Source: Actinomycetes bacterium (GTDB lineage: Bacteria; Actinomycetota; Actinomycetes; Prado026). Taken from it: 64,000 nucleotides of DNA. A model generated the notes under the pieces. It ran no database searches, was not told the origin of the DNA, and worked only from the letters and a program-made list of their open reading frames with translations. Position numbers and translations under genes: made by a program. The stretch lies in assembly GCA_038252405.1 (NCBI GenBank), contig JBBSAJ010000001.1, positions 50,530-114,529 of the forward strand, read 5' to 3'. The stretch's first letter is position 1; each line of letters begins with the position of its first letter. Shown here piece after piece: positions 1 to 35,709 of this stretch.

Positions 1-688
<688 letters not shown>

Positions 689-691
689 GCG

Positions 692-916
692 ATGGGCGCC
701 GTCGTGGCCATCGGAGCCCGCGCGCGGGTGCAGCCGTTCGCCCTCGCCGGGGTGGACTGGCGCGACGCGACGACGCCGGCCGACGTGCGGGCGGCGTGGA
801 CGGCGCTGCCCCAGGACACCGTGCTGGTCCTGCTCACCCCGGAGGCCCGCCAGGCGCTGGCCGACGAGCTGGCCGCGGTGACCAGCCGGCCGCTGTGGGT
901 GGAGCTGCCGCCGTGA
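692..916 (+). CDS. ntpF: A/V-type ATPase subunit F
   Basis: A 74-aa protein in the expected operon position between K and E, with composition and size consistent with subunit F. It is GTGA-coupled to the next gene. Confidence 0.55.
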   Translation: MGAVVAIGARARVQPFALAGVDWRDATTPADVRAAWTALPQDTVLVLLTPEARQALADELAAVTSRPLWVELPP

Positions 917-1428
917 GCACGGTGACCCAGCCGGGCGCAACGAACAGCCTGGTCGACGCGCTGGAGCCGGTGCGGGCCGAGCTGCTGCGGCAGGCCCACG
1001 AGGAGGCTGCGCAGCGGCTGCGGGACGCCACCACAGCTGCGCGGGAGAGCGTGCGCCAGGCCGAGGAGGAGGCCGCGCGGATCCTGGCCGAGGCGCGGGC
1101 CGAGGGGGCAGCGGACGCGGCCGCAGCCGCGGCCGCGCAGGAGGCCCGCAGCCGTCGGACGGCCCGCGCCGCCGTGCTGGCCGCCCGGTCCGAGGCCTAC
1201 GGCGAGCTGGTGCGGCGCAGCGCGGACGCGCTGCGCGGCGAGCCGGTCGACCGGCTGGTCGCGCTGGCCACCGGGCTGCTCGGCCAGCCGGTCCAGGTGA
1301 CCTCGGCCGAGGGCGGCGGGGTGGTCGCCACGGCCGGTGACCGCCGGGTTGACCTGTCGCTCGATGCGCTGGCCGAACGGGCCACCCGCCTGCTCGGACC
1401 CGACGTCGAGGGGCTGTGGCGGCCATGA
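913..1428 (+). CDS. ntpE: A/V-type ATPase subunit E
   Basis: GTG start at 913 in frame with the track ORF 796..1428. It is a coiled-coil, charged protein (LEPVRAELLRQAHEEAAQRLRDA...AEEEAARILAEARAEG) typical of subunit E. Its stop overlaps the ATG of subunit A (ATGA). Confidence 0.6.
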   Translation: MSTVTQPGATNSLVDALEPVRAELLRQAHEEAAQRLRDATTAARESVRQAEEEAARILAEARAEGAADAAAAAAAQEARSRRTARAAVLAARSEAYGELVRRSADALRGEPVDRLVALATGLLGQPVQVTSAEGGGVVATAGDRRVDLSLDALAERATRLLGPDVEGLWRP

Positions 1429-3155
1429 GCCGGCCTCCCGAGGTGCGCCGGGTCGTCGGCCCACTCGTCGAGCTGGAGCCCGCGGGCGACCTGGCCATGG
1501 CCGAGCTGGTGGAGCTGGGCCCGCTGCGGCTGCCGGGCGAGGTGGTCGGGCTGGACGCCGGGCGGGCCACGGTCCAGGCCTACGAGTACACCGGCGGGCT
1601 GCGACCCGGCGACGTCGCCCGGCCGCTGGGCCGGCCGCTGTCCGCGCGGCTCGGCCCGGGGCTGCTCGGCGGCATCTTCGACGGCCTGCTCAGGCCGCTG
1701 GCCGACGCGCCGTCCCGGCTCACGGCCGGCGGTCCGCGTGAGCCCGGGCCGGCGCGGCGGTGGCACTTCGTGCCGGCCGACGGGCTGTCGGCCGAGCTGG
1801 CCGTCGAGCTGCAGCCGGGCGACCTGCTCGGCACGGTGCGCACCGGCGGCCCGATCGAGCATCGGGTCCTGGTCCCGCCCGGTGTCGCCGGTGCGGTCAC
1901 GGGGTGCGCCGCCGAGGGGGACGTCGGGCCGGATGACGCCGTCGCCACCGTGGGGTCGACGCCCGTGGGACTGTTCGAGCACTGGCCGGTGCGGAACCCG
2001 CGGCCGGTGCGGGCCCGGCTGGACGACGTCGAGCCGCTGACCACGGGGCAGCGGGCCCTGGACCTGCTGTTCCCGATCGCCAGGGGCAGCACCGCCGCGG
2101 TCCCCGGCGGGTTCGGCACCGGCAAGACCGTGCTGCTGCAGCAGCTGGCCAAGTGGTGCGACGCCGACGTGATCGTCTACGTGGGCTGTGGCGAACGAGG
2201 CAACGAGATGGCCGACGTGGTGGCCGACCTGGGCAGCCTCGAGGACCCGCGCACCGGTGGTCGGCTCGCCGACCGCACCGTGGTCGTCGCGAACACGTCG
2301 GACATGCCGATGATGGCCCGCGAGGCCAGCATCTACACCGGCGTGACCGTGGCCGAGTACTACCGCGACATGGGCTACGACGTCGTCGTCATCGCCGACT
2401 CGACGTCCCGCTGGGCCGAGGCGCTGCGCGAGTTCGCCTCACGGACCGGCGCGCTGCCCGTCGAGGAGGGCTACCCCGCGGACCTGGCCTCGGCCCTGGC
2501 GGCCTTCTACGAGCGGGCCGCCCCGGTGACCACACTGGGTGGCCGGCACGGGTCGGTCACGGTGGTCGGCGCGGTGTCGCCGCCCGGCGGCGACCTGGCC
2601 GAGCCGGTCACCTCCCACACCCAACGGTTCGTGCGCTGCCTGTGGACCCTCGACCACGACCTGGCCTACGCCCGGCACTACCCGGCGGTGTCGTGGGCCG
2701 GCTCGTTCTCCCGGGACGTCGACGGGTTGGCCCGCTGGCATGCGCGCAACGGCGACACCAGCTGGGTGCGCCGGCGGGCCCGGGTCGCGGCGTTGCTGGC
2801 CGAGGCCGACCGGCTGTCCGACCTCGCGCAGCTCGTCGGCGAGGGCGCGCTCCCCGGTCGGGAGCGCATGGTGCTGCTCGCCGGACGGCTGGTCCGGGAG
2901 GCCGCCCTGCAGCAGAGCGCGCTGAGCCCCGTCGACGCGTCGTCCAGCCCGGCCAAGACCGCGGTGCTGGTGGACGCCGTGCTGGCCGTGGCCGACCGCT
3001 GCCAGCAGCTGGTCGACTCGGGGGTGCCCGCCGTCACGGTGGAGGAGGTCGACTTCGGCCCGCTGCTGCGGGCCCGGGAGGAGTCGGCCGATCCCGGGGT
3101 CGCGAAGGCACGGCTCGCCCTGATCCTCGAGCGGCTCGAGGGGCTGCTGCCATGA
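1425..3155 (+). CDS. ntpA: A/V-type ATPase catalytic subunit A
   Basis: Walker A motif GFGTGKTVLLQQLAKW, the V/A-ATPase A-subunit non-homologous insert region, and ...CGERGNEM. It is 576 aa long and ATGA-coupled at both ends. Confidence 0.9.
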   Translation: MSRPPEVRRVVGPLVELEPAGDLAMAELVELGPLRLPGEVVGLDAGRATVQAYEYTGGLRPGDVARPLGRPLSARLGPGLLGGIFDGLLRPLADAPSRLTAGGPREPGPARRWHFVPADGLSAELAVELQPGDLLGTVRTGGPIEHRVLVPPGVAGAVTGCAAEGDVGPDDAVATVGSTPVGLFEHWPVRNPRPVRARLDDVEPLTTGQRALDLLFPIARGSTAAVPGGFGTGKTVLLQQLAKWCDADVIVYVGCGERGNEMADVVADLGSLEDPRTGGRLADRTVVVANTSDMPMMAREASIYTGVTVAEYYRDMGYDVVVIADSTSRWAEALREFASRTGALPVEEGYPADLASALAAFYERAAPVTTLGGRHGSVTVVGAVSPPGGDLAEPVTSHTQRFVRCLWTLDHDLAYARHYPAVSWAGSFSRDVDGLARWHARNGDTSWVRRRARVAALLAEADRLSDLAQLVGEGALPGRERMVLLAGRLVREAALQQSALSPVDASSSPAKTAVLVDAVLAVADRCQQLVDSGVPAVTVEEVDFGPLLRAREESADPGVAKARLALILERLEGLLP

Positions 3156-4552
3156 GCGCGGTGTTCGGGGAGGTCGAGTACTCCCGGGTCCGTCGGCTCG
3201 ACGGGCCGCTGCTGGTCGTCGAGGGGGTGCGCGGAGTCGGCTGGGACGAGTACGCCCATGTGCGGCTCGACTCGGGGGCGACGCGACACGGCCTGGTGCT
3301 GGAGGTCGACCGCGACGTCGCGGTCCTGCAGGTGTTCGAGGGCACGGAGGGCATGGCGGCGACCCGCAGCTGGGTGGGATTCACCGCCGAGCCGCTGCGG
3401 ATCGCGGTGGGGCCGGGCTGGCTGGGCCGGGTGTGCAACGGCCGCGGCGAGCCGGTGGACGGCGGCCCGCCCGTGCTCGGCCGGACCAGGGCCACCATCA
3501 CCGGCGCCCCGCTCAACCCCACCTGGCGGGAGCCGCCGTCCGAGCCGGTGTTCACCGGGGTGTCCGCCGTCGACCTGCTCACCACGCTGGTCCGCGGGCA
3601 GAAGCTGCCGATCTTCTCGGTGGCCGGCCTGCCGCACCTGGACCTGGCCACCCAGATCGCCGCCCAGGCCAGCGCCGGCGGCGAGCCGTTCAGCGTCGTC
3701 TTCGTGGCGATGGGGCTCTCGCACGCGGACGCCGCCATGGTGCGCGACGCGCTGGAGGGTCGCTCGGCGGCCGGCGAGCTGGTGCTCGTGCTCAACACCG
3801 CGGACGAGCCGGTGATCGAGCGGATCCTCGCGCCGCGGGTGGGCCTGACCATCGCCGAGGAGCTGGCCTTCACGCAGGGACGGCACGTCCTCGTCGTACT
3901 GGCCGACATGACCAGCTACGCCGAGGCGCTGCGCGAGGTCTCGGCCGCCCGCGGCGAGATCCCGGCCCGCCGCGCCTACCCCGGCTACCTGTACAGCGAC
4001 CTGGCGTCGCTGTACGAGCGCTGCGGCCGGGTGCGGGGGATGGCCGGCTCGGTGACGATCGTGCCGGTACTCACCATGCCGTCGGGGGACATCACCCACC
4101 CGGTTCCGGACCTCACCGGCTACATCACCGAGGGCCAGATCGTGCTGTCCCCGGACGTGCACGCCCGCGGCGTGTACCCGCCCGTGGACGCCCTCGGCTC
4201 GCTGTCCCGGCTGATGCGCAAGGGCGCCGGCCCGAACCGGACCCGGGCCGACCACCTCGACCTGGCCGCCCAGCAGCTGGCCGCTCTGGCCCGGGCCCGC
4301 AACGTCCGGGACATCGCCGATCTCGTGGGCGTGGACGCGCTGAGCCGCACCGACCGGGCCTACCTGGACTTCCAGCGGGTGTTCGAGCAGGTGCTCGTGG
4401 ACCAGCGCCGGGACGAGAGCCGCTCGATGGAGGAGTCCCTCGACCGGGGCTGGACCGCGCTCGGTGCGCTGCCCCGGCGGGAGCTGACCATGCTGCCGCT
4501 GGCCGAGCTGGACAACCGCTACCCGGCCGGGTCCGGGGGTGAGCAGCAGTGA
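3152..4552 (+). CDS. ntpB: A/V-type ATPase subunit B
   Basis: The ATG at 3152 is in frame with the track ORF 2153..4552, whose N-terminal extension is R-rich wrong-frame-like sequence. The protein begins MSAVFGEVEYSRVRRLDGPLLVVEGV and contains ...FSVAGLPHLDLATQIAAQASA..., typical of the V/A-type B subunit. Confidence 0.9.
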   Translation: MSAVFGEVEYSRVRRLDGPLLVVEGVRGVGWDEYAHVRLDSGATRHGLVLEVDRDVAVLQVFEGTEGMAATRSWVGFTAEPLRIAVGPGWLGRVCNGRGEPVDGGPPVLGRTRATITGAPLNPTWREPPSEPVFTGVSAVDLLTTLVRGQKLPIFSVAGLPHLDLATQIAAQASAGGEPFSVVFVAMGLSHADAAMVRDALEGRSAAGELVLVLNTADEPVIERILAPRVGLTIAEELAFTQGRHVLVVLADMTSYAEALREVSAARGEIPARRAYPGYLYSDLASLYERCGRVRGMAGSVTIVPVLTMPSGDITHPVPDLTGYITEGQIVLSPDVHARGVYPPVDALGSLSRLMRKGAGPNRTRADHLDLAAQQLAALARARNVRDIADLVGVDALSRTDRAYLDFQRVFEQVLVDQRRDESRSMEESLDRGWTALGALPRRELTMLPLAELDNRYPAGSGGEQQ

Positions 4553-5169
4553 CCGGGGTACGGGTGCTGCCAGGACGGGCCGGCCGGCTGCGGCTGCGTC
4601 ACCAGCTGACCGTCGCCAGCCGCGGCGCGGACCTGCTGCAGCAGCGGCTGCAGATCCTGCGCCGGGAGGAGCAGCGGTTCCAGCTGCTGGTCGAGCGGAC
4701 CGAGCGGGAGTGGGCCCGGTCCTGCCGGGAGGCCGAGGAGTGGACGCTGCGGGCGGCGCTGGCCGGGGGCCAGCGCGGGCTGCGCCAGGCCGCTCCGTCC
4801 GGGTCGGTGCGGGCCGAGGTCCGCTGGAGCTCGACGATGGGGGTGAGCTACCCCGAGACCGTCGGCTGCACGATCCCGGAGCCACCGAGGACGACGCCGG
4901 TCTGCGGAGTGGCCACGCCCGAGGCGCAGCGTGCCGCCGCGGCCGCGCTGGAGGCCGGCGCCCGGCACGCCGCGGCGGAGGCGGCGGTCCGCATCCTGCA
5001 GGCCGAGGTCGCCGCGACCCGCCGCCGGCTGCGGGCGGTCACCCAGCGGCGCATCCCGGAGCTGACCGCGGCCCTCGCCGCGGTCGACGTCGGCCTGGAG
5101 GAGCAGGAGCGCGAGGACGGCGCGCGGCTGCGCTGGGCGCTCGACCAGCGGACCGGGGAGCCACCGTGA
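4549..5169 (+). CDS. ntpD: A/V-type ATPase subunit D
   Basis: The GTG at 4549 overlaps the B-subunit stop (GTGA). The 206-aa coiled-coil protein (LRLRHQLTVASRGADLLQQRLQILRREEQRF) is in the usual final operon position. Confidence 0.75.
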   Translation: MTGVRVLPGRAGRLRLRHQLTVASRGADLLQQRLQILRREEQRFQLLVERTEREWARSCREAEEWTLRAALAGGQRGLRQAAPSGSVRAEVRWSSTMGVSYPETVGCTIPEPPRTTPVCGVATPEAQRAAAAALEAGARHAAAEAAVRILQAEVAATRRRLRAVTQRRIPELTAALAAVDVGLEEQEREDGARLRWALDQRTGEPP

Positions 5170-5609
5170 TCAAGCGGATCCTGCTGGCCGTCGACGACTC
5201 CGAGGGCGCCCTGGCCGCCAGCCGGGTCGCCATCGACCTGGCGGACACCTACCAGGCGGTGCTGCGGGTCGTGTCGGTGGTCGTCGACGGGGTGCTGGCC
5301 GGGGCGCTGGCCGACGGCGCTCCCCTCGAGCCGGTCCGGCAGCGGCAGCTGGTGGCCTCCTCCTCCGTGCTGCGCTACGTGTCGCAGGCGGCTCGGCGCC
5401 GGGGGCTCACGGTCGAGGTGCGGCAGCTGGAGGGCCGGGCCGCGCAGCGGGTGCTGCACGAGGCGCAGGAGTGGTCGGCCGACGTGATCGTGGTGGGCCG
5501 CTCGGCCGTGCGGGGCGCCGGGCTGCCCTACGTCGGCAGCGTGACCGCTCACGTGCTGGAGTTCGCCGAGCAGCCGGTCCTCGTGGTGCCCCCGCCGGCT
5601 CGCCGGTAG
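5166..5609 (+). CDS. Universal stress protein (UspA family), translationally coupled to ntpD
   Basis: The GTG at 5166 overlaps the D-subunit stop. The protein begins VIKRILLAVDDSEGALAASRVAIDLA and ends ...VIVVGRSAVRGAGLPYVGSVTAHVLEFAEQPVLVV, which is the USP fold signature. Confidence 0.8.
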   Translation: MIKRILLAVDDSEGALAASRVAIDLADTYQAVLRVVSVVVDGVLAGALADGAPLEPVRQRQLVASSSVLRYVSQAARRRGLTVEVRQLEGRAAQRVLHEAQEWSADVIVVGRSAVRGAGLPYVGSVTAHVLEFAEQPVLVVPPPARR

Positions 5610-5675
5610 GCGCCACGTCGACGGGGTGCCGCCGGCCCACCGGTAACGTCAGGCGTGGACCCGAGGAGGACTGTT

Positions 5676-6473
5676 GTGAGCGCAGCGGGAATGGCCGATG
5701 TCCTGGTGCAGCACGACGGTGGCGTCGCGCTGGTCACGCTCAACCGTCCCGACAAGCTCAACGCGCTGACGCCGCAGATGCAGCGGCGCTACGTCGAGCT
5801 GCTGCGCGAGCTAGACGCCGACCCCGAGGTCCGGGTGGTCGTCGTCACCGGTGCCGGGCGCGGCTTCTGCTCCGGCGCCGACCTGGCTGCGCTCGCCGAC
5901 ACCGAGAAGCTGCTGTCCTTCGCGCCCGAGGCGGAGCAGCTGCCCCTGGTGGCGCTGGAGATCCGCAAGCCCGTGGTCGCCGCGGTCAACGGGCCGGTCG
6001 CCGGCATCGGCTTCGCGCTGATGCTCGCCTGCGACGTGCGCTTCGTGGCCGCCGGAGCGCGGATCGGGACGACGTTCTCCCGCCTGGGGCTGGTGGCCGA
6101 GTATGGGACGTCCTGGCTGCTACCCAGGATCGTCGGGACGGGCCGGGCCATGGAGCTGCTGCTCTCCGGCCGCGCCGTCGACGCCGACGAGGCGCTGCGG
6201 ATCGGACTGGTCCACGAGGTCGTCGCGGATCGCCCGGTGCTCGAGCGGGCGCTCCAGTGGGCGCACGAGGTCGCCGCGCAGTGCTCACCGCGGTCCCTGG
6301 CCACCATCAAGCGCCAGGTCTATGGCGACCAGGACCGGCCCAGGGACGAGGCGGTCGACCGTTCGGTCGCGCTGATGGTCGCCTCGTTCGGGTGGGGCGG
6401 ACTGCAGGAGGCGCTGACCGCACGGCTGGAGAACCGGCCGGCCGCGTTCCCGGGTCTGGGCCCGGACGACTGA
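5676..6473 (+). CDS. Enoyl-CoA hydratase/isomerase (crotonase) family protein
   Basis: GTG start with the RBS GAGGAGGA 6 nt upstream. The protein contains LVTLNRPDKLNALT...VVVTGAGRGFCSGADL, which is the crotonase signature. Confidence 0.85.
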   Translation: MSAAGMADVLVQHDGGVALVTLNRPDKLNALTPQMQRRYVELLRELDADPEVRVVVVTGAGRGFCSGADLAALADTEKLLSFAPEAEQLPLVALEIRKPVVAAVNGPVAGIGFALMLACDVRFVAAGARIGTTFSRLGLVAEYGTSWLLPRIVGTGRAMELLLSGRAVDADEALRIGLVHEVVADRPVLERALQWAHEVAAQCSPRSLATIKRQVYGDQDRPRDEAVDRSVALMVASFGWGGLQEALTARLENRPAAFPGLGPDD

Positions 6474-6501
6474 GCAGCCCGGCGAACGGAGGGGAGCTGC
6501 G

Positions 6502-9336
6502 GTGGCGCGCGTGGCCATCGGCTCCGACCCCTCGCTCATGGACGTGGGCGCGCTGCTCGGGCGGCTGGGGACGGACCCGGACCGGGGGCTGACCGTCCAG
6601 GAGGCGGCGCGTCGGCTGGCCGAGACGGGGCCGAACGAGATCGCCGCCGAACCCCCGGTGCCCTCGTGGCGCAAGCTCCTCGAGCAGTTCCGGGACCCGC
6701 TCATCTACCTGCTGTTCGCCGCGATCGTCATCTCGCTGGTGGCCTGGGCGGTCGAGGGTGCCTCCGGCTGGCCGTTCGACACGCTCGTGATCGCCGTCAT
6801 CGTCGTCCTGAACGCCGTGCTCGGCTACGCGCAGCAGGCACGGGCCGAGCACGCGGTCGAGGCGCTGCAGCGGATGAGCGCCACCACCGCGACCGTCGTG
6901 CGGGATGGACTCCAGCAGCGGGTGGCGACCCGCGAGCTGGTGCCCGGCGACCTGCTCGTCCTCGCCGAGGGTGACACCGTGGCCGCGGACGCCCGGCTGG
7001 TGTCCGCGGCCACGCTGAGGGTGTCGGAGGCGGCGCTCACCGGGGAGAGCGAGCCGGTGCTCAAGCACGCCCACACGTTGCCCGCGCCGGCCGCGCTCGG
7101 GGACCGGCTGGACATGGTCTTCAACGGCACCGCGGTCGCTCAGGGGGCGGGGCGCGCGGTCGTGACCGGCACCGGGATGGCGACCCAGATGGGCCGGATC
7201 GCCGGCCTGCTGCACGCCACCGTGGAGGAGCCGACGCCGCTGCAGCGGGAGATCGCGCGGGTGGGCCGGATGCTCGGGATCGCGGTCATCGTGATCGCCA
7301 TGATCGTGATGGCCACCATCGTCGTCTCCTTCGGCGTCCGCACCGCCCAGGACGTGGTCACGGCACTCCTGCTGGCCGTTTCGCTGGCCGTGGCCGCGGT
7401 CCCGGAGGGGCTGCCGGCCGTCTTGTCCGTCGTCCTCGCGCTGGGTGTCCAGCGGATGGCCGCGCATCGCGCGATCGTCAAGGAGCTGTCGTCGGTGGAG
7501 ACGCTCGGCTCGGCGTCGGTGGTCTGCTCGGACAAGACCGGCACCCTCACCAAGGGCGAGATGACCATCGGACGCGTGATCACGGCCGCGGGACTCGTCA
7601 CGGTCACCGGAGCCGGCTATCGGCCGGACGGGGGGATGGAGCACGACGGCGAGCCGCTGGAGGAGGGCGGCGCGATCTGGCGGCAGACGGCCCTCGTGCT
7701 CGCCGGCGGTGCGCTGGCGAACGACGCGACCCTGCGGGAGGCGGACGGCGAGTGGACCATCCAGAGCGACCCGACCGAGGCCGCGTTCCTCGTCGCCGAG
7801 ATCAAGCTCGGCATCCGGGACCGGCGGGCGGGGCGCTTCCGGCGGGTGGGCCACATCCCGTTCACCTCCGAGCGGATGATGATGACCAGCCTCGAGGCGG
7901 ACGCCGAACGGGCCGGCATGCTCTCGGTGGTCACCAAGGGCGCCCCCGACGTGCTGCTCGACCGGTGCTCCTCCGTGCAGGTCGGTGATCGGCTCGAACG
8001 CCTCGACGACGCGTGGCGGGCCCGGATCCTGGCCGACGTGGATCACCTCTCCGGTGAGGCGTTCCGGACGCTGGCCGTGGCCTACCGGCCGCTCGAGGTC
8101 ACCACACCACCGGAGCTGGACGACTCGCTGGAGCGGGACCTGGTCTACACGGGCCTGGTCGGCATCATCGACCCGCCGCGGCCCGAGGCGGCGGCCGCGA
8201 TCGCCGAGGCCCACCGCGCGGGGGTCCGGGTCGTGATGATCACGGGGGACCACCCGCGGACCGCGGGACGCATCGCCAGGGACCTGGGCATCGCCGAGCA
8301 CGAGACCGTGGCGGTGTCCGGGGCCGAGCTCGACCAGCTGGGTCCCGAGCAGTTCCGGCAGACGGTGCGCGAGCGGTCGGTGTACGCGCGGGTGACGCCG
8401 GAGCACAAGCTCCGCATCGTCGACGCACTCCAGGCCGACCACCAGGTGGTGGCCATGACCGGCGACGGCGTGAACGACGCGCCGGCACTGAAGTCGGCCG
8501 ACATTGGCATCGCCATGGGGCGCACCGGCACCGAGGTGACCAAGGAAGCCGCGAAGATGATCCTCGCCGACGACAACTTCGCGACCATCGTGGCGGCCAT
8601 CCGGGAGGGCCGCGGCATCTTCGAGAACATCAAGAAGTTCCTGCGCTACCTGCTCTCGTCGAACATGGGCGAGGTCCTCACGGTGTTCCTCGGTGTCGTC
8701 CTCGCCGGCGGCATCGGCCTGACCCACGGTGAGGGCTCCGTCGCGCTCCCGCTGCTGGCGACCCAGATCCTGTGGATCAATCTGCTCACCGACAGCGGTC
8801 CGGCGCTCGCGATGGGCGTGGACACCCAGACCGAGGACGTGATGAGCCGCCCGCCCCGCTCACTGACCGACCGGGTCATCGACCGTCGGATGCGGGCTGG
8901 CGTCCTGGTGATCGGCCTGGCCATGGCGGCCTCGACGCTCGCGACGATCGACCTGTACCTGCCTGGCGGCCTCATCGAGGGGACCCATTCGCTGGACAAC
9001 GCCCGAACCGCAGGGTTCACGGTGCTGGTGCTCGCCCAGCTGTTCAACTCCTTCAACGCGCGGTCGGAGACGGTGACTGCCTTCCACCGCGTCTTCGCCA
9101 ACCGCTGGCTGTGGGGCGCGGTCGGCTTGTCGGCGCTGCTGCAGGTCGCCGTCGTCCAGCTGCCGGTCTTCAACCGTGCGTTCACCACCACGCCGCTGTC
9201 GCTCGAGCAGTGGCTGGCCTGCCTCGCGATGGCCAGCGCGGTGCTGTGGGCCAGCGAGATCCGCAAGCTGTTCCTGCGGCTTGGCTCCCGCTCCGCCCCC
9301 GCCGTCCCCGATGGGAGTGGGGTGGGAGTGCCCTAG
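6502..9336 (+). CDS. Cation-transporting P-type ATPase (P2-type, Ca2+/Mg2+-like)
   Basis: DKTGTLT phosphorylation motif, [12 protein letters not shown] hinge motif, and ten-TM architecture. The N-terminus ...[19 protein letters not shown] is typical of P2A-type pumps. A GGAGGGGA RBS precedes the GTG start. Confidence 0.9.
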
Positions 9337-11000
9337 CTGGCCTGGTAGGCGGTGAAGGCGTCCATGAGGTTGGGGAAGATGTGGTCGGCGGCGAACTTGT
9401 CGAGCACCCCATAGGTCTTCAGGGTCTGCAGCAGGTGGTCGTCGGCTCGGGCGAGGCCGAACTGGGCCCCTTGCTGGTGGACGAAGTCGACGAGGCCGCT
9501 CAGGGCGATCCCGGCCGAGTAGTCGACGTCGTCGATGGCTGAGCAGTCCAGGACGAGCCAGCGCACCTTGTCGGGGGCAGCTTGGACGATCGCCTCGACG
9601 TCGTCGGTGAACCGGCTGACGTTGGCGTAGAAGAGCTGAGCGTCGAACCGGAAGACGACCAGGCCGGGCAGGCTCTGCGCGCCGGCGGTCGCCGGCACGT
9701 AGGTGGGGGCGCCCCCGATGCTCTCGCCGACGACGAAGTCGCTGGGCCGGTAGGCCCGGCGGATGATCTCCAGGATCGACAGCACGACCGCCAGGATGAT
9801 GCCCTGCTCGACGCCGACGCCGAAGACGACGAACCCGGTGGCGCAGGCGATCAGGAACTCGCTCACCCGGCGCCCGCGGATCCGCCGGAGGCCGGCCACG
9901 TCGATGAGGCTCACCCCGATCATGAACACGATGCCGGCCAGGGTCGCCTTGGGCATGGTGGTCAGCAGCCCGGTGGCGAAGAGCACGAACACCAGCACGA
10001 CCGCCGACATGGTCAGGTTCGCCAGCTGGGTCCGGCCCTTCTGCCCGTCCAGGATCTGGGTCTTGGTGGGGCTGCCGTTGACCACGAACGTGCCGCTGAG
10101 CCCGGCGGCGAAGCTGGCCCCGCTGAGCCCGAGGATGTCCCTGTTGATGTCCACCCGCTGTCCGTGCTTGGCGGCGAAGCTGCGTGACGTGGCCGCGCTC
10201 TGGGCGACGATGAGCACGAAGCAGGCGAACGCGATCGCGAGCACCTGCGGGACGTCGCTCCAGGTGATGCCCTTCGGCAGGCCGATCGGTGGGAAGCCTC
10301 CGGTCACCGCCCCGACCACCGCCACGCCGTGCGTGGAGGCGTCCACCGCCGTGGAGATGATGATCGACAGGACCACCGCCACCACCGCCCCTGGGACCCT
10401 GGGCAGGAACCGCTCGAACCCGATGATGATCAGCACCGTGCCCAGCGCGAACGCGAACGTCGCCAGGCTCGTGTCCGGGATGGACTGGACCATCGCCCAC
10501 TGCTGCTGGAACCAGTTGCCGGACCCCTTGGGCACCCCGAGCATGTCGGGGATCTGGCCGGTGAACACCTGGATGCCCACGCCGGTGAGGAACCCGATCA
10601 GCACCGAGGCGCTGAGGAAGTCACCGATGAACCCCAGCTTGAGCACCCGGGCGACCAGCAGCATGGCCCCGCACACCAGCGCCACCAGGCTGGTCCAGGC
10701 CACCCATTCAGCCGTGTTCGGGCTGAGCCCGGAGATGCCCAGCCCGGCCAGCCCGGCGGCCAGGATCGCCGCGGTCGCGGAGTCGGCTCCCACCACCAGC
10801 AGCCGGGACGAGCCGATCAACGCGAACATGATCGTCGGGAAGATCACCGTGTACAGGCCCGTCGCCAGCGGCGTCTGCGCGATCGAGGTGTACCCCATCA
10901 CCTCCGGGATCGCCACCGCCGCCAACGTCACACCTGCGACCACGTCGGTCGACAACCACGACCGCTGGTAGCCCTTCAGCCACTCCGGCAGCAGGCTCAT
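9333..11000 (-). CDS. SulP family inorganic anion transporter with C-terminal STAS domain
   Basis: The protein begins MSLLPEWLKGYQRSWLSTDVVAGVTLAAVAIPEVMGYTSIA and has a C-terminal STAS region (...WLVLDCSAIDDVDYSAG...). Its stop codon overlaps the converging P-type ATPase stop within CTAG at 9333-9336. Confidence 0.85.
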   Translation of the reverse strand: MSLLPEWLKGYQRSWLSTDVVAGVTLAAVAIPEVMGYTSIAQTPLATGLYTVIFPTIMFALIGSSRLLVVGADSATAAILAAGLAGLGISGLSPNTAEWVAWTSLVALVCGAMLLVARVLKLGFIGDFLSASVLIGFLTGVGIQVFTGQIPDMLGVPKGSGNWFQQQWAMVQSIPDTSLATFAFALGTVLIIIGFERFLPRVPGAVVAVVLSIIISTAVDASTHGVAVVGAVTGGFPPIGLPKGITWSDVPQVLAIAFACFVLIVAQSAATSRSFAAKHGQRVDINRDILGLSGASFAAGLSGTFVVNGSPTKTQILDGQKGRTQLANLTMSAVVLVFVLFATGLLTTMPKATLAGIVFMIGVSLIDVAGLRRIRGRRVSEFLIACATGFVVFGVGVEQGIILAVVLSILEIIRRAYRPSDFVVGESIGGAPTYVPATAGAQSLPGLVVFRFDAQLFYANVSRFTDDVEAIVQAAPDKVRWLVLDCSAIDDVDYSAGIALSGLVDFVHQQGAQFGLARADDHLLQTLKTYGVLDKFAADHIFPNLMDAFTAYQAS

Positions 11001-11132
11001 CTGGTGGTCCTCCTCCGCTGGGAGCGATCATGACCAGCATCGGTCCCCACGGTAGGGGTGGACGTCCCCCCGCGTGCACCTATCGACCCGGCGGGGCGGG
11101 CGGATGCGGATCGTGCTGCTCGAGCCGCGTAG

Positions 11133-12662
11133 TCAATTGCTGAGATCAGCGGGCAGGAGCAGGTACTTCCCCGAACGCTCAGCATCCGAGGCGTCGAGGA
11201 GCGCGTTGGTGCGCTCCAGGTCCAGCCTTGCCGCGGCGACCGTGGAGAAGTCGACCTGGGCCGACCAACGCCACGCGTTGGCCAGCACCCTGACGAGCAA
11301 CCCTGGATCGTCCTCGCGAGACAGTCGGCGTAACCCAGCCAGGTAGTCGCTTCGAGCGATCAGGGGGATGAGAACTCGGTGCTGCCCGGCGACGCTGAGC
11401 TCGGAGTTCATCGCCAACCGGGCCAGCCGGCCGTTCCCGTCATCGAACGGGTGGACCTCGGCGACGAGGAACATCATGAAGGCAGCGCGAGCGAAGGGCA
11501 GGGTCAGCTGGTCGCGGAAGGCTAGCCCGCGCTCCAGCGTGCCGGCCGTCAGCTCGGGGTCGACGAACTCGTAGGAGCCGAATCGATTGGGTTCAACCTT
11601 GAACTGTCCAGGCCTCTTGTCCGGCCGGGCTGCCATCAGTCGCGCATGACGAGCGCTGAGCTGCTCGATGAGCTCGGCCCCTGTGGCAGGCACCGTGCGC
11701 GCGTCGACCGGGTCGCTGATCAGCTGGTAGGTGCTGGTCACGTCATGCGCGTCGGCGGGTCGCGTGGGCGGCACGGTGTGGTCATAGACGATCGTGACAG
11801 CCTCGTCGAGGGTGAACTCGGTTCCTTCGATGAAGTTCGAAAGGTACGCCTCGAAGAACGGCTGCTCGCGCACCATCGCCGAGACCAGCACCGGCAAGTG
11901 GGCCGGGTCCGGATCGAAGTCACCGGTGGCGAGACGGTCGGCCAACGCGGCGAACCGGGCCAGCCTCGCGGTGTCCCAGCCGCGCCTCGCGCCGAGCGCG
12001 CCGAGCAGCCCCGAGCGGGGGATCGGCGCGGTGCCGAGCGCAGTCGCGAACAGTGCATCCAGCGCAGCGAAACGATCGGTGAGCCCGAGCTCGTCAGCCA
12101 GCTTCCGGGCTCGGTCCCGGAACCGGTTGAGTCGGGTAGGCGTGTATTGCTGGGACAGCAGCGCCATCCAGTCCGCGAGCTCGGCGTCTGTCAGCGTTCG
12201 TGCAACCCCTCCGCGGGCCCGGGAGGGTGCCAGGTTCTCCACGAGCGCCCGTGGGATCGAGGAGTGGCGCAGGCCGCCCATCCACGGCGGGTCGTCCGGA
12301 AACGGAGGATGCCCCCGGCGCACAGCGACCCGCAGCCCGGGCAGCATCAGGTCACGTGCCCGTGAGTTCGAGGCGATGAAAAGCGTGTCGCCGTCGAACA
12401 GGGTGGGCCCTGCAGACCGGTCGACGATGAGCGCGTCCGGCACCCATCGGGCGAGGATCTCCCAGACGCGGGTGCGCACCAGCCGGTCCAGCGGGGTGGT
12501 GAGGTCTGTGGTGTAGACGCCACGGACCACCTGCCGGGCCCGACCGGCGGCGACCGCCCGGCTGGGCCGCTCGCCGAGGCTGGCTGCGTCGAACGCGATC
12601 ACGGGTCGGGACGCTGGCCGCATGGACTCAACTGTGCCGGAGTGGACCGATGTTGGCAACAA
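11133..12662 (-). CDS. Fic/DOC family protein (AMPylase-type) with an N-terminal AbiEi-like regulatory domain
   Basis: Fic motif HPFDDGNGRLARLAMN and an upstream inhibitory motif SNFIEGT of the form (S/T)xxxE(G/N). GC3 is visibly lower than in neighbouring genes. TTG start per the ORF track, with an alternative ATG 39 nt downstream. Confidence 0.8.
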   Translation of the reverse strand: MLPTSVHSGTVESMRPASRPVIAFDAASLGERPSRAVAAGRARQVVRGVYTTDLTTPLDRLVRTRVWEILARWVPDALIVDRSAGPTLFDGDTLFIASNSRARDLMLPGLRVAVRRGHPPFPDDPPWMGGLRHSSIPRALVENLAPSRARGGVARTLTDAELADWMALLSQQYTPTRLNRFRDRARKLADELGLTDRFAALDALFATALGTAPIPRSGLLGALGARRGWDTARLARFAALADRLATGDFDPDPAHLPVLVSAMVREQPFFEAYLSNFIEGTEFTLDEAVTIVYDHTVPPTRPADAHDVTSTYQLISDPVDARTVPATGAELIEQLSARHARLMAARPDKRPGQFKVEPNRFGSYEFVDPELTAGTLERGLAFRDQLTLPFARAAFMMFLVAEVHPFDDGNGRLARLAMNSELSVAGQHRVLIPLIARSDYLAGLRRLSREDDPGLLVRVLANAWRWSAQVDFSTVAAARLDLERTNALLDASDAERSGKYLLLPADLSN

Positions 12663-12927
12663 GCGTCTGATATGATCTCGAATATGGCCTTAGACGTCTG
12701 ATAAGATTCAGGCCGATCGGACGAAATCTCGACTGGACTGCGCTATCGACATCGGCCCGGACGCCCCTTGCCCATCGGCACCGGACAGCACCAGAAGACA
12801 GCGCTCCGCAAGGCCTGACACCCCCCTCACGGGGGCACTTCCCTCATGGAGTGTGGGAAAAGTGTGGGTAAGATCAACTTCAGCGATCTTGTGAGGCCCG
12901 GCCATGGCCTGTGACCTGCGGTTTTGT

Positions 12928-13002
12928 GGGTGCCCCCGGCAGGATTCGAACCTGCGCCACCGCCTCCGGAGGGCGGTGCTCTATCCCCTGAGCTACGGGG
13001 GC
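12928..13002 (-). tRNA. tRNA-Arg (anticodon CCG)
   Basis: Minus-strand cloverleaf GCCCCCGTAGCTCAGGGGATAGAGCACCGCCCTCCGGAGGCGGTGGCGCAGGTTCGAATCCTGCCGGGGGCA. The anticodon loop is CTCCGGA, the T-loop is TTCGAAT, and the 3' CCA is not fully encoded. Confidence 0.85.
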
Positions 13003-20330: not shown

Positions 20331-22193
20331 GTGAGCGACACCATCACCAGCGACGTCGACGCCCGTCCGGCCGACCAGGCCAACGGCACCGGGTCGCACC
20401 CCGCGTCCGCATCGGACGCAACCGCCAACGCCGCCACCAAGGCTCGCCGCCGCCCGGCCGGGATGTCCGGCATGGTGCTGTCCGAGCTGCAGGAGCTGGC
20501 CTCCTCTCTCGGCATCAGTGGCACCGGCCGGATGCGCAAGGGTCAGCTGATCGAGGCGATCACCGCGGCCCAGTCCGGCGGCTCCGCGTCCGCCCCGCCG
20601 GCGGCCCCGGCCGCGCGGACCGCGCCGCGGACGCAGCCCGAGGAGCGCACCGTGGTGGCCGCTCCGAGTGCGGCTGCCCCCGAGACACCGTCCGAGGCGC
20701 CCGCGAGCGCGCCCGCCGCACCGGCCGCCGAGGCGGCGCCGGAGGGCCGCGAGCGCGCGGCGCGAGGTGATCGCCGGACCGAGCGCACGTCGCCCCAGCA
20801 GGGCGAGCGCCAGCAGCCGGGCGACCGTCCGCACAGTGGCGCACCTGCCCAGCACAGTGGCGCACCTGCCCAGCACAGTGGCGCACCTGCCCAGCAAGGT
20901 GGCGCACCTGCCCAGCAGAACCGCTACGACGAGGACGCCGACGGCGACCGCGGTCGCCGTCGGCGCCGTGGCCGCAACCGGGACCGTCGGCCGCGCGAGC
21001 GCGAGCGTTTCGGGGTCGAGGCCGAGCCGGTCGTCAGTGAGGACGACGTCCTCGTGCCGGTCGCCGGGATCCTCGACATCCTGGACAACTACGCGTTCGT
21101 CCGCACCACCGGCTACCTGCCCGGCCCCAACGATGTGTACGTCTCGCTCGCCCAGGTGCGCCGGTACAACCTGCGCAAGGGCGACGCGGTCACCGGCGCG
21201 GTCAAGCAGCAGCGGGAGGGCGAGCGCCGGGAGAAGTTCAACGCGCTGGTCCGGCTGGACACCATCAACGGGGCCGACCCCGAGGAGTCCCGCAGCCGGG
21301 TCGACTTCAACAAGCTGACCCCGCTGTACCCGCAGGAGCGGCTGCGCCTGGAGAGCGACCCGGGCAACCTGACCACCCGGGTCATCGACCTGGTCGCACC
21401 GATCGGCAAGGGCCAGCGTGGCCTGATCGTCTCGCCGCCCAAGGCCGGCAAGACCATGGTGCTGCAGTCGATCGCGAACGCGATCACCAAGAACAACCCC
21501 GAGGTGCACCTCATGGTCGTGCTCGTCGACGAGCGCCCCGAAGAGGTCACCGACATGCAGCGCACGGTCAAGGGCGAGGTCATCGCCTCGACCTTCGACC
21601 GTCCGGCCGAGGACCACACGACCGTCGCGGAGCTCGCCATCGAGCGGGCCAAGCGGCTGGTCGAGCTGGGGCACGACGTCGTGGTGCTGCTCGACTCGAT
21701 GACTCGGCTCGGCCGGGCCTACAACCTGGCCGCTCCGGCGTCCGGCCGGATCCTCTCCGGCGGCGTCGACTCCAGCGCGCTGTACCCGCCCAAGCGCTTC
21801 TTCGGTGCCGCGCGCAACATCGAGCACGGCGGCTCGCTGACCGTCCTGGCCACCGCGCTGGTCGAGACCGGCTCGAAGATGGACGAGGTCATCTTCGAGG
21901 AGTTCAAGGGCACCGGGAACATGGAGCTCAAGCTCGACCGGCGACTCGCGGACAAGCGGATCTTCCCGGCGGTGGACGTCGACTCGTCCGGCACCCGCAA
22001 GGAGGAGCTGCTGCTCGCCCCCGAGGAGCTCAAGATCACCTGGGGGCTGCGCCGGGTGCTGCACGCACTGGACTCCCAGCAGGCGATCGAGCTGCTGCTC
22101 AACAAGCTGCGTGAGACGTCCAGCAACTACGAGTTCCTGCTGCAGGTGCAGAAGACCACGCACCAGGCCGGCAACGGGAGCTCGAAGGACTGA
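20331..22193 (+). CDS. rho: Transcription termination factor Rho with a long actinobacterial N-terminal insertion domain
   Basis: GTG start with an AAGGA RBS 9 nt upstream. The N-terminus ...[30 protein letters not shown] is followed by an RG/Q-rich low-complexity insert and then the RecA-like ATPase domain ([13 protein letters not shown]). Confidence 0.9.
20832..20915 (+). repeat. 21-bp in-frame tandem repeat x4 (cacagtggcgcacctgcccag) inside the rho insertion domain, encoding (H)SGAPAQ units
   Basis: Three perfect 21-bp copies and one near-perfect copy lie head-to-tail, visible directly in the sequence. Confidence 0.9.
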
Positions 22194-28746: not shown

Positions 28747-28977
28747 ATGGAAGGGGAGCGCCAGGACGCCCCGCGGACGAGTTCCTCGACCGCGAACGCT
28801 GCCTGGTCGATCATCAGCTATCTGCTCTCAGGCATCCTCGTCTGGGGTGGTCTGGGGTGGTTGATCGACCGGTGGCGCGGGGGTGGCCCGGTCTTCTTTC
28901 CCATCGGCGTCCTGGTGGGCGTCGTCGCAGCCTTGTATCTCGTGTTCGTCCGCATCCACAGCACGGACGGTCAATGA
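28747..28977 (+). CDS. AtpZ/AtpI-like small membrane protein (putative F-ATPase accessory protein)
   Basis: A 76-aa protein containing AAWSIISYLLSGILVWGGLGWLIDRW, the conserved motif of the ATPase_gene1 family. It lies directly upstream of atpB. Confidence 0.6.
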   Translation: MEGERQDAPRTSSSTANAAWSIISYLLSGILVWGGLGWLIDRWRGGGPVFFPIGVLVGVVAALYLVFVRIHSTDGQ

Positions 28978-29002
28978 CGACCGCCACCCGGAGGTACTCC
29001 GC

Positions 29003-29830
29003 GTGATCAGCGCCGCCGCCGTCACCCTCTCCGAGGGGGGCTGCCACCTCGGGTCCGGATGCGGGTTCCCGGCCCCCGACGCCGGAATCTTCCAGTTCGA
29101 TCCCTACGCGTCCTTCACCCTGTTCGGGATCACCTTCGACATCACCAAGTCGTCGCTGCTGGTGATCCTCGGGGCGGCCCTGATCGTCGTGTTCTTCCTG
29201 GTGGCCTTCGCCCGGCCGCGGCTCGTGCCGCGTCCCGTGCAGAACGTCGGCGAGATGGGCTACCTGTTCATCCGGGACCAGATCGCCCGCGACGTCATCG
29301 GCAAGGAGGGGGACAAGTTCGTCCCGTTCCTCGGGTCGCTGTTCTTCTTCGTCTGGATCATGAACATCTTCGGGATCATCCCGCTGGCGCAGTTCCCGCC
29401 GATGTCCCGGTTCGCGTTCCCGGTGACCCTCGCGGTGATGGTCTGGGTGCTCTACATGTACCTCGGGCTGAAGCACCAGGGGCCGGTCAAGTTCTTCACG
29501 AACATGATGTTCCCGCCCGGGATCCCCAAGCCGATCTACGTGATCCTCGCGCCGATCGAGCTGATCTCGAACATCCTGGTCCGGCCGTTCACGCTCGCCG
29601 TCCGTCTGTTCGCCAACATGTTCGCGGGGCACCTGCTGCTCACGGTGTTCACCGTGGGCGCCTGGTACCTGCTCTCGCCGTCCCTGATCGGGGCCCTCGG
29701 CTCGGCGACCTCGTTCCTCGTGACGGTCATCCTCACCGGGTTCGAGATGCTGATCCAGGCCTTGCAGGCGTTCATCTTCACCCTGCTCACCGCCGTCTAC
29801 ATCTCCGGTTCGCTGCACGCCGAGCACTGA
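29003..29830 (+). CDS. atpB: F0F1 ATP synthase subunit a
   Basis: GTG start after a GGAGG RBS. The protein contains ...LAVRLFANMFAGHLLL..., with the conserved Arg in TM4, and ends ...TLLTAVYISGSLHAEH. Confidence 0.9.
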   Translation: MISAAAVTLSEGGCHLGSGCGFPAPDAGIFQFDPYASFTLFGITFDITKSSLLVILGAALIVVFFLVAFARPRLVPRPVQNVGEMGYLFIRDQIARDVIGKEGDKFVPFLGSLFFFVWIMNIFGIIPLAQFPPMSRFAFPVTLAVMVWVLYMYLGLKHQGPVKFFTNMMFPPGIPKPIYVILAPIELISNILVRPFTLAVRLFANMFAGHLLLTVFTVGAWYLLSPSLIGALGSATSFLVTVILTGFEMLIQALQAFIFTLLTAVYISGSLHAEH

Positions 29831-30127
<297 letters not shown>

Positions 30128-30164
30128 CCGAGGCCGCAGCCATCACCACGAAGGGCGGAGCCAC

Positions 30165-30713
30165 GTGATCCACCTCGCGAGCGAAGCGACCAACCCCAAC
30201 GTCCTGCGGTTGCCGTTGGACGAGCTCATCATCGGCACGGTCGCCTTCTTCATCGTGTTCTTCGTGCTGGCCAAGTTCGCCTTCCCGAACATCAAGAAGA
30301 CCCTGGCCGAGCGGGTCGACAAGATCGAAGGTGGCATGGCCCGGGCCGACCAGGCCCAGGCCGAGGCGAACGCGCTGCTCGAGCAGTACCGGCAGCAGCT
30401 CGCGCAGGCTCGCAACGAGGCGGCCGAGATCCGGGCCCAGGCCCAGGCCGACCGGCAGGCCATCGTCGAGCAGGCGCGGGTCGAGGCGACGGCGGCGGCC
30501 GAGCAGGTCACCGCACGGGCGCAGGCGCAGCTCGCGGCCGACCAGCAGCAGATGCGCACCGACCTCATCCGTGAGGTCGGGTCGCTCTCGGTGAACCTCG
30601 CGGGCAAGATCGTCGGCGAGTCGCTGACCGACGACGCCCGGGTCAGCGCGACGGTAGACCGGTTCATCGTCGACCTCGAGCAGCTGTCCACCTCCACGGC
30701 GGAGCCGGTCTGA
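30165..30713 (+). CDS. atpF: F0F1 ATP synthase subunit b
   Basis: An N-terminal TM segment followed by a long Ala/Gln/Glu-rich coiled coil. Confidence 0.85.
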   Translation: MIHLASEATNPNVLRLPLDELIIGTVAFFIVFFVLAKFAFPNIKKTLAERVDKIEGGMARADQAQAEANALLEQYRQQLAQARNEAAEIRAQAQADRQAIVEQARVEATAAAEQVTARAQAQLAADQQQMRTDLIREVGSLSVNLAGKIVGESLTDDARVSATVDRFIVDLEQLSTSTAEPV

Positions 30714-31528: not shown

Positions 31529-31607
31529 TGACCCCGTCCACCACGACCATGACCCGAACCGATCGCCCGGGGCACACACGGGCGCCGAGCAAGAGAGCAG
31601 GGAAGCA

Positions 31608-33245: not shown

Positions 33246-33278
33246 TGCCGGGTCCAGTGAAGGAAGGGGTCTGATCGC

Positions 33279-35709
<2,431 letters not shown>

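Follow-up and report, generated by a model that had tools for sequence, protein, structure and literature searches.

Fic enzymes and AbiEi antitoxins have each been studied in depth, but always as separate stories. Precedents for AMPylation targets, from FicT, Doc and SoFic, include gyrase/topo IV and EF-Tu. In FicT/FicA, VbhT/VbhA and Doc/Phd, a Fic-fold toxin is inhibited and the antitoxin part autoregulates the promoter. These are two-gene systems, with inhibition in trans (class I). AbiEi and Rv2827c, for their part, bind to 23-bp repeats lying across the promoters of their own genes (PMC7319586). There are also single chains that carry both Fic and a DNA-binding domain, like the Fic-HTH fusions and CccR of Yersinia pseudotuberculosis; in the portions of PMC2686095 and PMC9755527 that were available, neither an AbiEi-type module nor an iteron-like array was encountered. 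CccR is a secreted T6SS effector.

The gene described here joins an AbiEi-like module to a Fic domain. The parts are known, and no description of their combination was found in the literature. Inhibition and autoregulation would be combined as in the two-gene systems, except that everything is in cis.

The gene was found in a stretch of 64,000 nt, here called the window, which spans positions 50,530-114,529 (forward strand) of contig JBBSAJ010000001.1 from assembly GCA_038252405.1. It was first called as an ORF of 509 aa, 11133-12662 (-). That ORF is present, but the protein is most likely 496 aa long and starts from the ATG at 12623, which makes the coding sequence 11133..12623 (-), with its stop codon at 11133-11135. 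This start is indicated by the homologues, which at full length measure 486-512 aa and all align from that ATG, and by the conserved promoter. The TTG start at 12662 was rejected: homologues begin at the ATG, and the TTG falls within the conserved promoter/operator, abutting an invariant -35-like hexamer in the second repeat unit. Compared to the closest relative, locus L171 (91% nucleotide identity), the dN/dS of the gene is 0.17. This is purifying selection, and it suggests that the gene is functional. The AF2 model of the full-length protein has a pLDDT of 93 and a pTM of 0.84.

The Fic half is easily recognised. Pfam Fic (PF02661) matches with 45.1 bits, where the cut-off is 24 (E 1.9e-11), and the protein has the Fic fold. 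The active-site motif, HPFDDGNGRLAR, is encoded at 11418..11453 (-) as residues 391-402 and follows the HxFx(D/E)GNGRxxR pattern; its H, P, D, G, N, G, R and R are invariant across 36 homologues. The inhibitory motif SNFIEGT, of the form (S/T)xxxE(G/N), is encoded at 11820..11840 (-). It covers residues 262-268, which in the 496-aa numbering makes its glutamate residue 266. In the same 36 homologues S, N, E, G and T are invariant, and F and I nearly so. In alignment, SNFIEGT falls on the inhibitory helix of FICD (TVAIEGN), and it lies N-terminal of the active site. A profile of the 36 homologues matches FICD with an E of 1.4e-14 and the inhibitory helices aligned, and there is a weak Fic_N match at the same position.

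The original prediction had described a canonical Fic motif, HPFDDGNGRLARLAMN, together with SNFIEGT, and both are indeed there. It had also named the protein a self-inhibited Fic of class II or III. Since SNFIEGT lies N-terminal of the active site, class II holds and class III falls away. Judged by these motifs, the protein is a class II Fic, with an intramolecular inhibitory glutamate in the same chain. AMP transfer to a protein target is the predicted activity of the domain.

The N-terminal half is harder to place. It had been proposed to be AbiEi-like, and in structural models it does fold like an AbiEi antitoxin, as a shortened winged helix followed by a nucleotidyltransferase-like (NTase-like) alpha/beta domain. 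Residues ~8-40, encoded at 12504..12602 (-), are predicted to form two short helices and a beta-hairpin wing, ...PSRAVAAGRARQVVRGVYTT..., and are the proposed DNA-reading part. This winged helix is truncated, with only ~28 residues ahead of the wing. Residues ~45-135 (12219..12491 (-)) make up the alpha/beta domain, which resembles the AbiEi C-terminal domain and has the nucleotidyltransferase-like fold without a conserved DxD. A helical linker of residues ~146-245 (11889..12188 (-)), with helices at 146-233 in the models, joins the module to the Fic domain. In some homologues DUF7696 matches this linker below threshold.

The top Foldseek match of the module is 6Y8Q (prob 0.99), and the N-terminal half has the two-domain fold of 6Y8Q and 1ZEL. 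In a structure search with the full-length protein, AbiEi-type entries are the first matches that are not Fic. At the level of sequence the likeness is weaker. Pfam AbiEi_4 (PF13338), the HMM check that had been suggested, does not match the window protein at E<=1. It does match 13 of 22 homologues, below the cut-off of 25, at 13-22 bits. These matches span profile positions 26-47 only, the H3-wing segment, and leave positions 1-25 unmatched. An hhalign comparison with a 19-sequence AbiEi alignment likewise covers just the wing segment (21 columns, E 0.006, probability 6.5%), while with AbiEi and Rv2827c taken as single sequences (supplement of PMC7319586) it is not significant (E about 0.6). 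An N-terminal profile found no AbiEi in the PDB by sequence; it does find 1482 sequence clusters (50% identity) at E<=1e-3. By sequence, then, the module would not be counted as a member of the AbiEi family. Pfam also shows no AbiEii/DUF1814 partner in 11 homologous loci with gene calls (L001-L003, L165-L171). In the window, the neighbours of the gene are a SulP gene and a tRNA.

The N-terminal region might instead come from the toxin side, from a DUF1814/AbiEii/MenT-type nucleotidyltransferase, which would make the protein a fusion of two enzymes, or of an enzyme and a pseudo-enzyme. JHP933 (4OK0) is indeed matched by Foldseek with prob 0.97 over ~220 columns, and MenT3/TglT is also among the matches. 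AbiEi is however the top match in both methods and covers the winged-helix part. The sole sequence-level signal is to AbiEi_4, and the catalytic G[GS]...DxD pattern is not conserved in the family alignment. [quoted passage not shown] We consider a toxin-side origin very improbable.

The DNA just upstream of the gene holds three 21-nt direct repeats with an exact period of 31 bp, which is three helical turns. Unit 1, CTTATCAGACGTCTAAGGCCA, lies at 12685..12705 (-), or -82 to -62 from the ATG, is operator-like and has the same position in homologous loci. Unit 2, CATATCAGACGCTTGTTGCCA, at 12654..12674 (-), runs from -51 to -31 and ends in TTGCCA. Unit 3, ACTCCGGCACAGTTGAGTCCA, at 12623..12643 (-), runs from -20 to +1, holds the invariant GGCACAGT and is identical in L171. 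The repeats overlap both the start codon and an invariant pair of promoter-like hexamers. These are the -35-like TTGCCA at 12654-12659 (-), the last six bases of unit 2, and the -10-like CACAGT at 12631-12636 (-), 17 nt past TTGCCA and 7 nt ahead of the ATG.

A short direct repeat, CGTCTGATATGAT/CGTCTGATAAGAT, had been noted here earlier. It is present at 12664-12676 and 12695-12707 and turns out to be part of the three-unit array. By our own estimate, chance alone could produce an exact 9-nt repeat in a region of a few hundred bases. This repeat is significant because it is conserved across loci, and not otherwise. In 7 of 9 close loci the units stand at -82, -51 and -20, with flanks that are otherwise unrelated. 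Mean self-match is 0.39 at a shift of 31, compared to 0.19-0.29 at other shifts, and the best-matching shift falls at 30-32 in 16 of 26 loci, compared to 7.2% of random windows (binomial p about 1e-12). Homologues in unrelated contexts and phyla are preceded by the same layout, and the sequence of the unit varies by clade.

TTGCCA/CACAGT may well be the promoter, with a weak -10; a promoter consensus scan of the region returned no site at its thresholds. With CACAGT only 7 nt before the ATG, the mRNA is probably leaderless. The conserved repeats overlapping this putative promoter point to autoregulation by the protein through its own winged-helix remnant, and the array also fits the earlier idea of a regulator fused to an enzyme.

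A sigma-54 reading of GGCAC...TTG was considered and dropped, as the spacing misfits TGGCAC-N5-TTGC. Actinobacteria are also not known to have sigma-54. The letters TTGC are common to the AbiEi operator probe and the repeat units of this family, to which we give no weight.

On the other side of the array lies a tRNA. As had been predicted, tRNA-Arg(CCG), at 12929..13002 (-), has its 3' end toward the gene. It belongs to a conserved backbone, tRNA-(response regulator)-argS-lysA. Between tRNA and operator is a spacer, 12706..12928 (-), which is non-coding and lineage-specific, has a GC content of about 0.6, and is shared by the window, L004 and L171 alone. In L171, indels disrupt the frame of an ORF within it, 12708-12905 (-), which is not coding. 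The spacer also contains the CCCCCCTCACGGGGG hairpin at 12821-12835. The palindrome is there, but its fold is not conserved in L171. Nor does it have a T-tract, and a role as terminator or regulatory element is not supported. An Rfam scan reported only the tRNA, plus an antisense 'Plastid-ycf2' artefact on that tRNA.

Gene and upstream region had been described as AT-richer than the flanking genes. This holds for the 305-bp spacer upstream of the ATG (GC 0.58) and for GC3, which at 0.84 is the lowest in the window, where other credible genes have 0.88-1.0. It does not hold for overall GC, which at 0.691 is the 8.6th percentile of the window but matches the flanking SulP gene at 0.688.

In line with the insertion at the tRNA proposed in the original prediction, the gene might have come with a genomic island, as its cargo or as what is left of it, that integrated site-specifically in the 3' end of tRNA-Arg(CCG). 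Several observations are in favour of this. The gene is 305 bp from the tRNA 3' end and is missing from ~60 other loci with the same tRNA-argS backbone. GC3 and the GC of the spacer are low. In L171 an Xis-like HTH_17 gene follows the Fic stop codon, exactly where synteny with the window ends, and some family members lie beside a tRNA-Leu (L086) or a tmRNA att duplicate (L169). But no integrase was found by Pfam within 12 kb of the gene. Credible ORFs 266 to 11000 are matched as A/V-ATPase subunits, enoyl-CoA hydratase, P-type ATPase and SulP. Nowhere in the window is the tRNA 3' end repeated directly over at least 12 nt on the same strand, and blastn-short and k-mer searches with the 3' half of the tRNA gave only chance 10-11-mers on the tRNA strand. 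Most homologous loci have no tRNA nearby, and conservation does not extend past the stop codon on one side or about -85 on the other. This makes an island of this kind improbable. The tRNA is a synteny boundary, and not demonstrably an att site.

What survives of the insertion claim comes from comparing relatives. At the tRNA-argS junction the gene is absent in the ~60 more distant loci with this tRNA (ArgS 59-77% identical), while L171 has it at the same site, with a dS like that of the neighbour. The presence in L171 also speaks against a classic tRNA-site integration. Horizontal acquisition is nevertheless likely, because next to this absence there are homologues, 64-81% identical, in wholly different genomic contexts. 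In this genome the acquisition would predate the split from the L171 lineage, and the gene would now occupy the variable side of the tRNA-Arg/argS junction.

The contexts of these homologues have little in common. Across more than 10 homologous loci there is no conserved neighbour gene. Homology between loci reaches from about -85 to the stop codon and no further, which means that the gene moves alone and not as part of an island. Some homologues sit inside GTA/prophage tail clusters, and some adjoin SNF2 and a methylase, or SIR2-HerA and a SoFic-like gene. A metagenome scan found distant family members only.

Existing defence models recognise part of the protein. The PADLOC models SoFic and PDC-S04 match the Fic core only, SoFic with an E of 2.5e-13 over profile positions 59-212 of 361. 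The NCBIfam equivalog ProtAdlyltaseSoFic scores 12 bits where its cut-off is 550, so neither PADLOC nor NCBIfam yields a full-length SoFic match. This is a single gene, and the separate toxin and antitoxin genes of a type II, IV or VII system are not found.

On balance we lean towards a single-gene AbiEi-like/Fic toxin or defence module, which represses itself and moves together with ~85 bp of control DNA. The N-terminal winged helix would bind the three repeats, all on one face of the DNA, and thereby shut down its own promoter (probably a leaderless one), just as AbiEi and Rv2827c repress theirs. The Fic domain would be held off by Glu266, and possibly also by the packed AbiEi-like module. 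A trigger (phage infection and loss of repression are the most plausible) would then lead to AMPylation of an essential target and to growth arrest. The outcome would be a toxin or abortive-infection device made of one polypeptide.

A further step is to suppose that an AbiEi-type repressor swapped its NTase toxin for a fused Fic. The resulting self-repressing module, with the iteron-like three-repeat array of 31-bp period as its hallmark and the repeat sequence co-evolving with the protein, would have spread across several phyla as a bare cassette of one gene, entering chromosomes as well as prophages and GTA clusters. We offer this as a tentative idea, less likely than not. The NTase-fold domain may also control Fic in cis, by analogy with the auto-modification of AbiEii that AbiEi induces.

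The protein might also be no toxin at all. It could be a bifunctional AMPylase/deAMPylase whose N-terminal module serves ligand, substrate or oligomerisation, with the repeats being ordinary autoregulation. FICD and SoFic, which are class II and keep the inhibitory glutamate, are deAMPylases or switchable enzymes according to PDB entry names and a SoFic preprint abstract, and Fic-HTH fusions have long been suggested to be regulatory (PMC2686095). Vertical retention, purifying selection and housekeeping neighbours would suit such a role. The patchy distribution would not, and neither would a different context at every locus, the members in prophage/GTA tail clusters or beside defence genes, the atypical GC3, or the lack of a conserved partner or target gene nearby. 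A purely regulatory role seems unlikely to us, if less so than the other alternatives.

Some observations stand as counterpoints to the module we favour. In the lineage of the window, the gene is kept vertically and stably beside housekeeping genes. Class II Fic proteins that keep their glutamate, like FICD and SoFic, can be mainly deAMPylases or regulators. And the repeats here are direct, where those of AbiEi and Rv2827c are inverted.

If the toxin or defence reading is true, it adds a single-gene system to proteins now annotated merely as "Fic family protein". With a purely regulatory role, it would be one more ordinary example of the Fic-HTH theme. In addition, the fusion is a natural test of what the enigmatic AbiEi C-terminal domain does with a partner that is not an NTase. 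The three-site operator is compact and differs in sequence between clades, which allows direct study of protein-DNA specificity and of cooperative binding.

Compared to known systems, the Fic half is closest to the class II enzymes, like FICD of human and C. elegans, Bacteroides BT_2513 and Shewanella SoFic. It shares their HPFx(D/E)GNGRxxR active site, and the (S/T)xxxE(G/N) helix N-terminal of it in the same chain. SoFic is moreover a single-gene phage-defence entry with a winged helix. The accessory modules differ: TPR in FICD, DUF4172/Fic_N plus a C-terminal wHTH in SoFic, and an N-terminal AbiEi-like module here. With Fic-HTH fusions (PMC2686095) and CccR (PMC9755527), a Fic enzyme that is also a transcription factor, the protein shares the joining in one chain of Fic and a DNA-binding domain with a proposed or demonstrated role in regulating transcription, but the DNA-binding fold and its position are different. 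With AbiEi and MenA4 (Rv2827c; COG5340, AbiEi_4) it shares the two-domain fold of winged helix and NTase-like C-terminal domain, the ...G.h.Rh.RGhY signature of H3 and wing, and repeats of ~21-23 bp overlapping its own promoter and start. Unlike in AbiEi and MenA4, the winged helix is without its first helix. The repeats, spaced with a 31-bp period, are direct and do not form inverted pairs. A DUF1814 toxin gene of its own is also lacking, and the module is covalently joined to Fic instead.

The Fic gene lies on the minus strand at 11133-12662 and encodes 509 aa when counted from a TTG. Full-length homologues are all 486-512 aa long, and their alignment begins at the ATG at 12623; the TTG at 12662 falls within a conserved promoter element. 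For these two reasons the product most likely has 496 aa.

The canonical Fic active site of the original prediction is confirmed. The motif HPFDDGNGRLAR is present, and Pfam Fic matches at 45.1 bits (cut-off 24). The family alignment shows no variation at most positions of the catalytic motif (H, P, D, G, N, G, R, R), nor at S, N, E, G and T of the inhibitory motif. This motif, SNFIEGT, lies 125 residues upstream of HPFDDGNGRLAR. A profile built from 36 full-length homologues matches FICD (E 1.4e-14) and aligns the FICD inhibitory helix TVAIEGN with SNFIEGT. The choice between class II and class III had been left open; by sequence this is a class II Fic, with inhibition predicted to act in cis from a motif N-terminal to the active site, and not class III. 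The AlphaFold2 model is confident (pLDDT 93, pTM 0.84).

Residues 1-245 have no significant match in Pfam, NCBIfam or PADLOC. An AbiEi-like N-terminus had been proposed, and as a statement about fold this stands in the structure comparison, while AbiEi family membership by sequence is a weak link and not demonstrable. Foldseek ranks the AbiEi antitoxin-type protein 6Y8Q first (prob 0.99), and then JHP933, a DUF1814 protein. [quoted passage not shown] Since a DxD on the relevant strand is not conserved in the family alignment, we read the N-terminal alpha/beta domain as a non-catalytic nucleotidyltransferase-like fold. Scanned singly, 13 of 22 homologue N-termini match AbiEi_4, all below threshold (13-22 bits versus 25) and spanning profile positions 26-47 only, where the recognition helix ends and the wing follows. 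Using hhalign, the N-terminal profile matches a 19-member AbiEi alignment at E 0.006 over 21 columns, with a probability of only 6.5%; the aligned segments are SRAVxAGRxRRLxRGVYT and LTRLxxEGxIxRVxKGIY, respectively. Against single AbiEi-type sequences the profile does not reach significance. The winged helix is shortened, with about 28 residues preceding the wing.

The short direct repeat reported in the promoter region, ACGTCTGATA/GCGTCTGATA, is there, and belongs to a larger array of three units. The 5' flanks were aligned for nine loci, with proteins 64-81% identical to the window protein and unrelated surroundings. Invariant blocks are, in order, TTGCCA, 17 nt, GGCACAGT, 7 nt and ATG. The three 21-nt units (consensus CTTAnnn[G/C]AC[G/A]nnnnnn[G]CCA) start at -82, -51 and -20, an exact period of 31 bp; mean self-match is 0.39 at shift 31, versus 0.19-0.29 at all other shifts from 8 to 49. 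Unit 2 terminates with a -35-like hexamer. Unit 3 holds a -10-like CACAGT, and its last base is the A of the ATG. A generic consensus promoter scan found no site at its thresholds; from the layout we infer a promoter and a leaderless mRNA.

Distant members (31-45% identity, GC 35-59%, some from other phyla) have the same layout with other unit sequences, for example AATTAACAAAAGTTTGCA three times in one locus (L176) and TAATCTATAnATACCG in another (L097). In 16 of 26 loci the best self-similarity shift falls at 30-32; among random windows drawn from these loci, 7.2% do so (p ~1e-12, the loci being partly non-independent). In a few loci the shift is 41 bp, one helical turn more. Sites that lie on one face of the DNA, overlap the promoter and co-vary with the protein would be characteristic of autoregulation by the protein's own DNA-binding domain. 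Since homology between loci ends at about -85 on the 5' side and exactly at the stop codon on the 3' side, promoter, operator and ORF appear to move as a single unit.

The gene had been called AT-richer than its flanks. This holds for GC3 (0.84, versus 0.88-1.0 for the remaining credible window genes) and for the 305-bp upstream spacer (GC 0.58), but not for overall GC. The gene has 0.691 (window mean 0.726) and is at the 8.6th percentile among same-size windows, which is unremarkable because the flanking SulP gene has an equal GC of 0.688. The compositional signal of gene and spacer is real but modest.

The tRNA-Arg(CCG) gene (12929-13002, minus) is on the same strand as the Fic gene, with its 3' end toward it. 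An Rfam 'Plastid-ycf2' match at 12930-13002 on the plus strand (34.9 bits, threshold 65.7) is an artefact, the antisense of the tRNA. In the conserved actinomycete backbone here, tRNA-Arg(CCG) is followed by argS and lysA, in some cases with a response regulator between the tRNA and argS. Around 60 of 80 argS loci carry the tRNA in the same orientation, and within 8 kb none of these encodes a homologue of Fic, SulP or the P-type ATPase. Close Fic homologues sit elsewhere: between ribF and rpsO, near ABC transporters, near PIN or MazE genes, or adjoining a DUF2397/DUF2398/SbcC-like cluster. On both grounds the gene was likely gained horizontally. That much of the proposed insertion at the tRNA survives; classic integration is not supported, as neither an integrase on the tRNA's 3' side nor an att-like repeat of tRNA-Arg was found in the window. 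In one locus (L167, 6588-11497) a conserved gene cluster made up of DUF2397, DUF2398 and an SbcC-like ATPase comes after the Fic homologue.

Relatives bear on the insertion in both directions: absent from those backbone loci, the gene is present at the same site in the closest relative, L171 (a contig of GCA_021783045.1). The two are collinear at 91% nt identity from argS through tRNA, spacer and the entire Fic gene, whose proteins are 94% identical. Because dS is similar for Fic (0.18) and the adjoining response regulator (0.26), and Fic dN/dS is 0.17, the gene has probably been vertically inherited and kept functional since the split. Synteny stops exactly at the Fic stop codon, possibly the boundary of a mobile element. 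Beyond it the L171 contig encodes a 68-aa HTH_17 (excisionase-like) protein before ending (3391-3844), where the window has SulP. The first 60 nt past the tRNA 3' end (12869-12928) are identical to L171 at 59 positions, versus 91-93% for adjacent coding DNA, and about 21 nt also match beside the tRNA-Arg of another contig (L070). This stretch could be a tRNA trailer, a processing signal or another element.

A tRNA or tmRNA is near the Fic homologue in 2 of 17 other loci (L086, L169), suggestive of integration but not decisive. In L169, 44 nt at 6553-6596, 53-96 nt past the Fic-homologue stop, repeat the 3' end of the tmRNA with 97.7% identity, and the tmRNA gene itself is 3.1 kb further on (9685-10049). 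The arrangement indicates an island putatively integrated in ssrA directly beside the Fic homologue.

On the variable side of the window's tRNA are A/V-type ATPase subunits (c/K, A, D; 266-5169), and on the conserved side an F-type ATP synthase operon that looks complete (a, delta, alpha, gamma, beta; 28883-35709). In all, 64 kb of one actinomycete encode two rotary ATPases. In the rho gene, a 21-nt tandem repeat (20831-20917, 4.1 copies, 96% matches) precedes the parts that encode the Rho_N and RNA-binding domains.

A search with the profile of the N-terminal module finds 1482 clusters (50% identity) at E<=1e-3, and 1032 of them at E<=1e-10. Among the best 150 matches, most have the length of the full fusion, about 470-540 aa; the remainder are mostly 174-440 aa (fragments or stand-alone modules), and two are longer. 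The fusion is a self-contained module, as its loci have no conserved partner gene. Seven family members are on IMG/VR contigs, and two (L172 5790-7292, L174 5977-7488) lie between GTA/prophage tail genes. Their flanks are a baseplate-hub gene (Gp84_N/BR0599) and a GTA_TIM/Phage-tail_3 host-specificity gene, a moron-like placement. Another member (L175) is followed by SNF2 helicase and DNA methylase genes. In L177 (4120-11319) a SoFic-like Fic gene with Fic_N adjoins the AbiEi-like fusion, followed by SIR2_2 and HerA helicase genes; this looks like a defence island. The PADLOC SoFic and PDC-S04 models match the Fic core of the window protein. These phage and defence contexts, the PADLOC matches and the AbiEi ancestry favour a toxin or abortive-infection role. 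The protein may instead be a regulatory AMPylase/deAMPylase without toxicity, given that, according to the abstract of the SoFic preprint, class II enzymes are often switchable when they keep the glutamate.

Fic-HTH fusions in general have been described since Kinch et al. 2009 (PMC2686095), and CccR is a Fic enzyme doubling as a transcription factor (PMC9755527). AbiE/MenAT systems are well characterised, with a recent reinterpretation in terms of antitoxin-induced auto-phosphorylation of the toxin. AbiEi and Rv2827c bind 23-bp repeats that overlap their own promoters (PMC7319586); the repeats here likewise overlap the promoter, but are direct, whereas theirs are inverted. Full-text literature searches combining AbiEi and Fic turned up no account of an AbiEi-Fic fusion, nor was the 31-bp array met in the literature consulted on Fic and AbiEi/AbiE systems. 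Fic, Fic-HTH and AbiE/MenAT are known parts; what appears to be new is the AbiEi-like and Fic combination with its 31-bp array.
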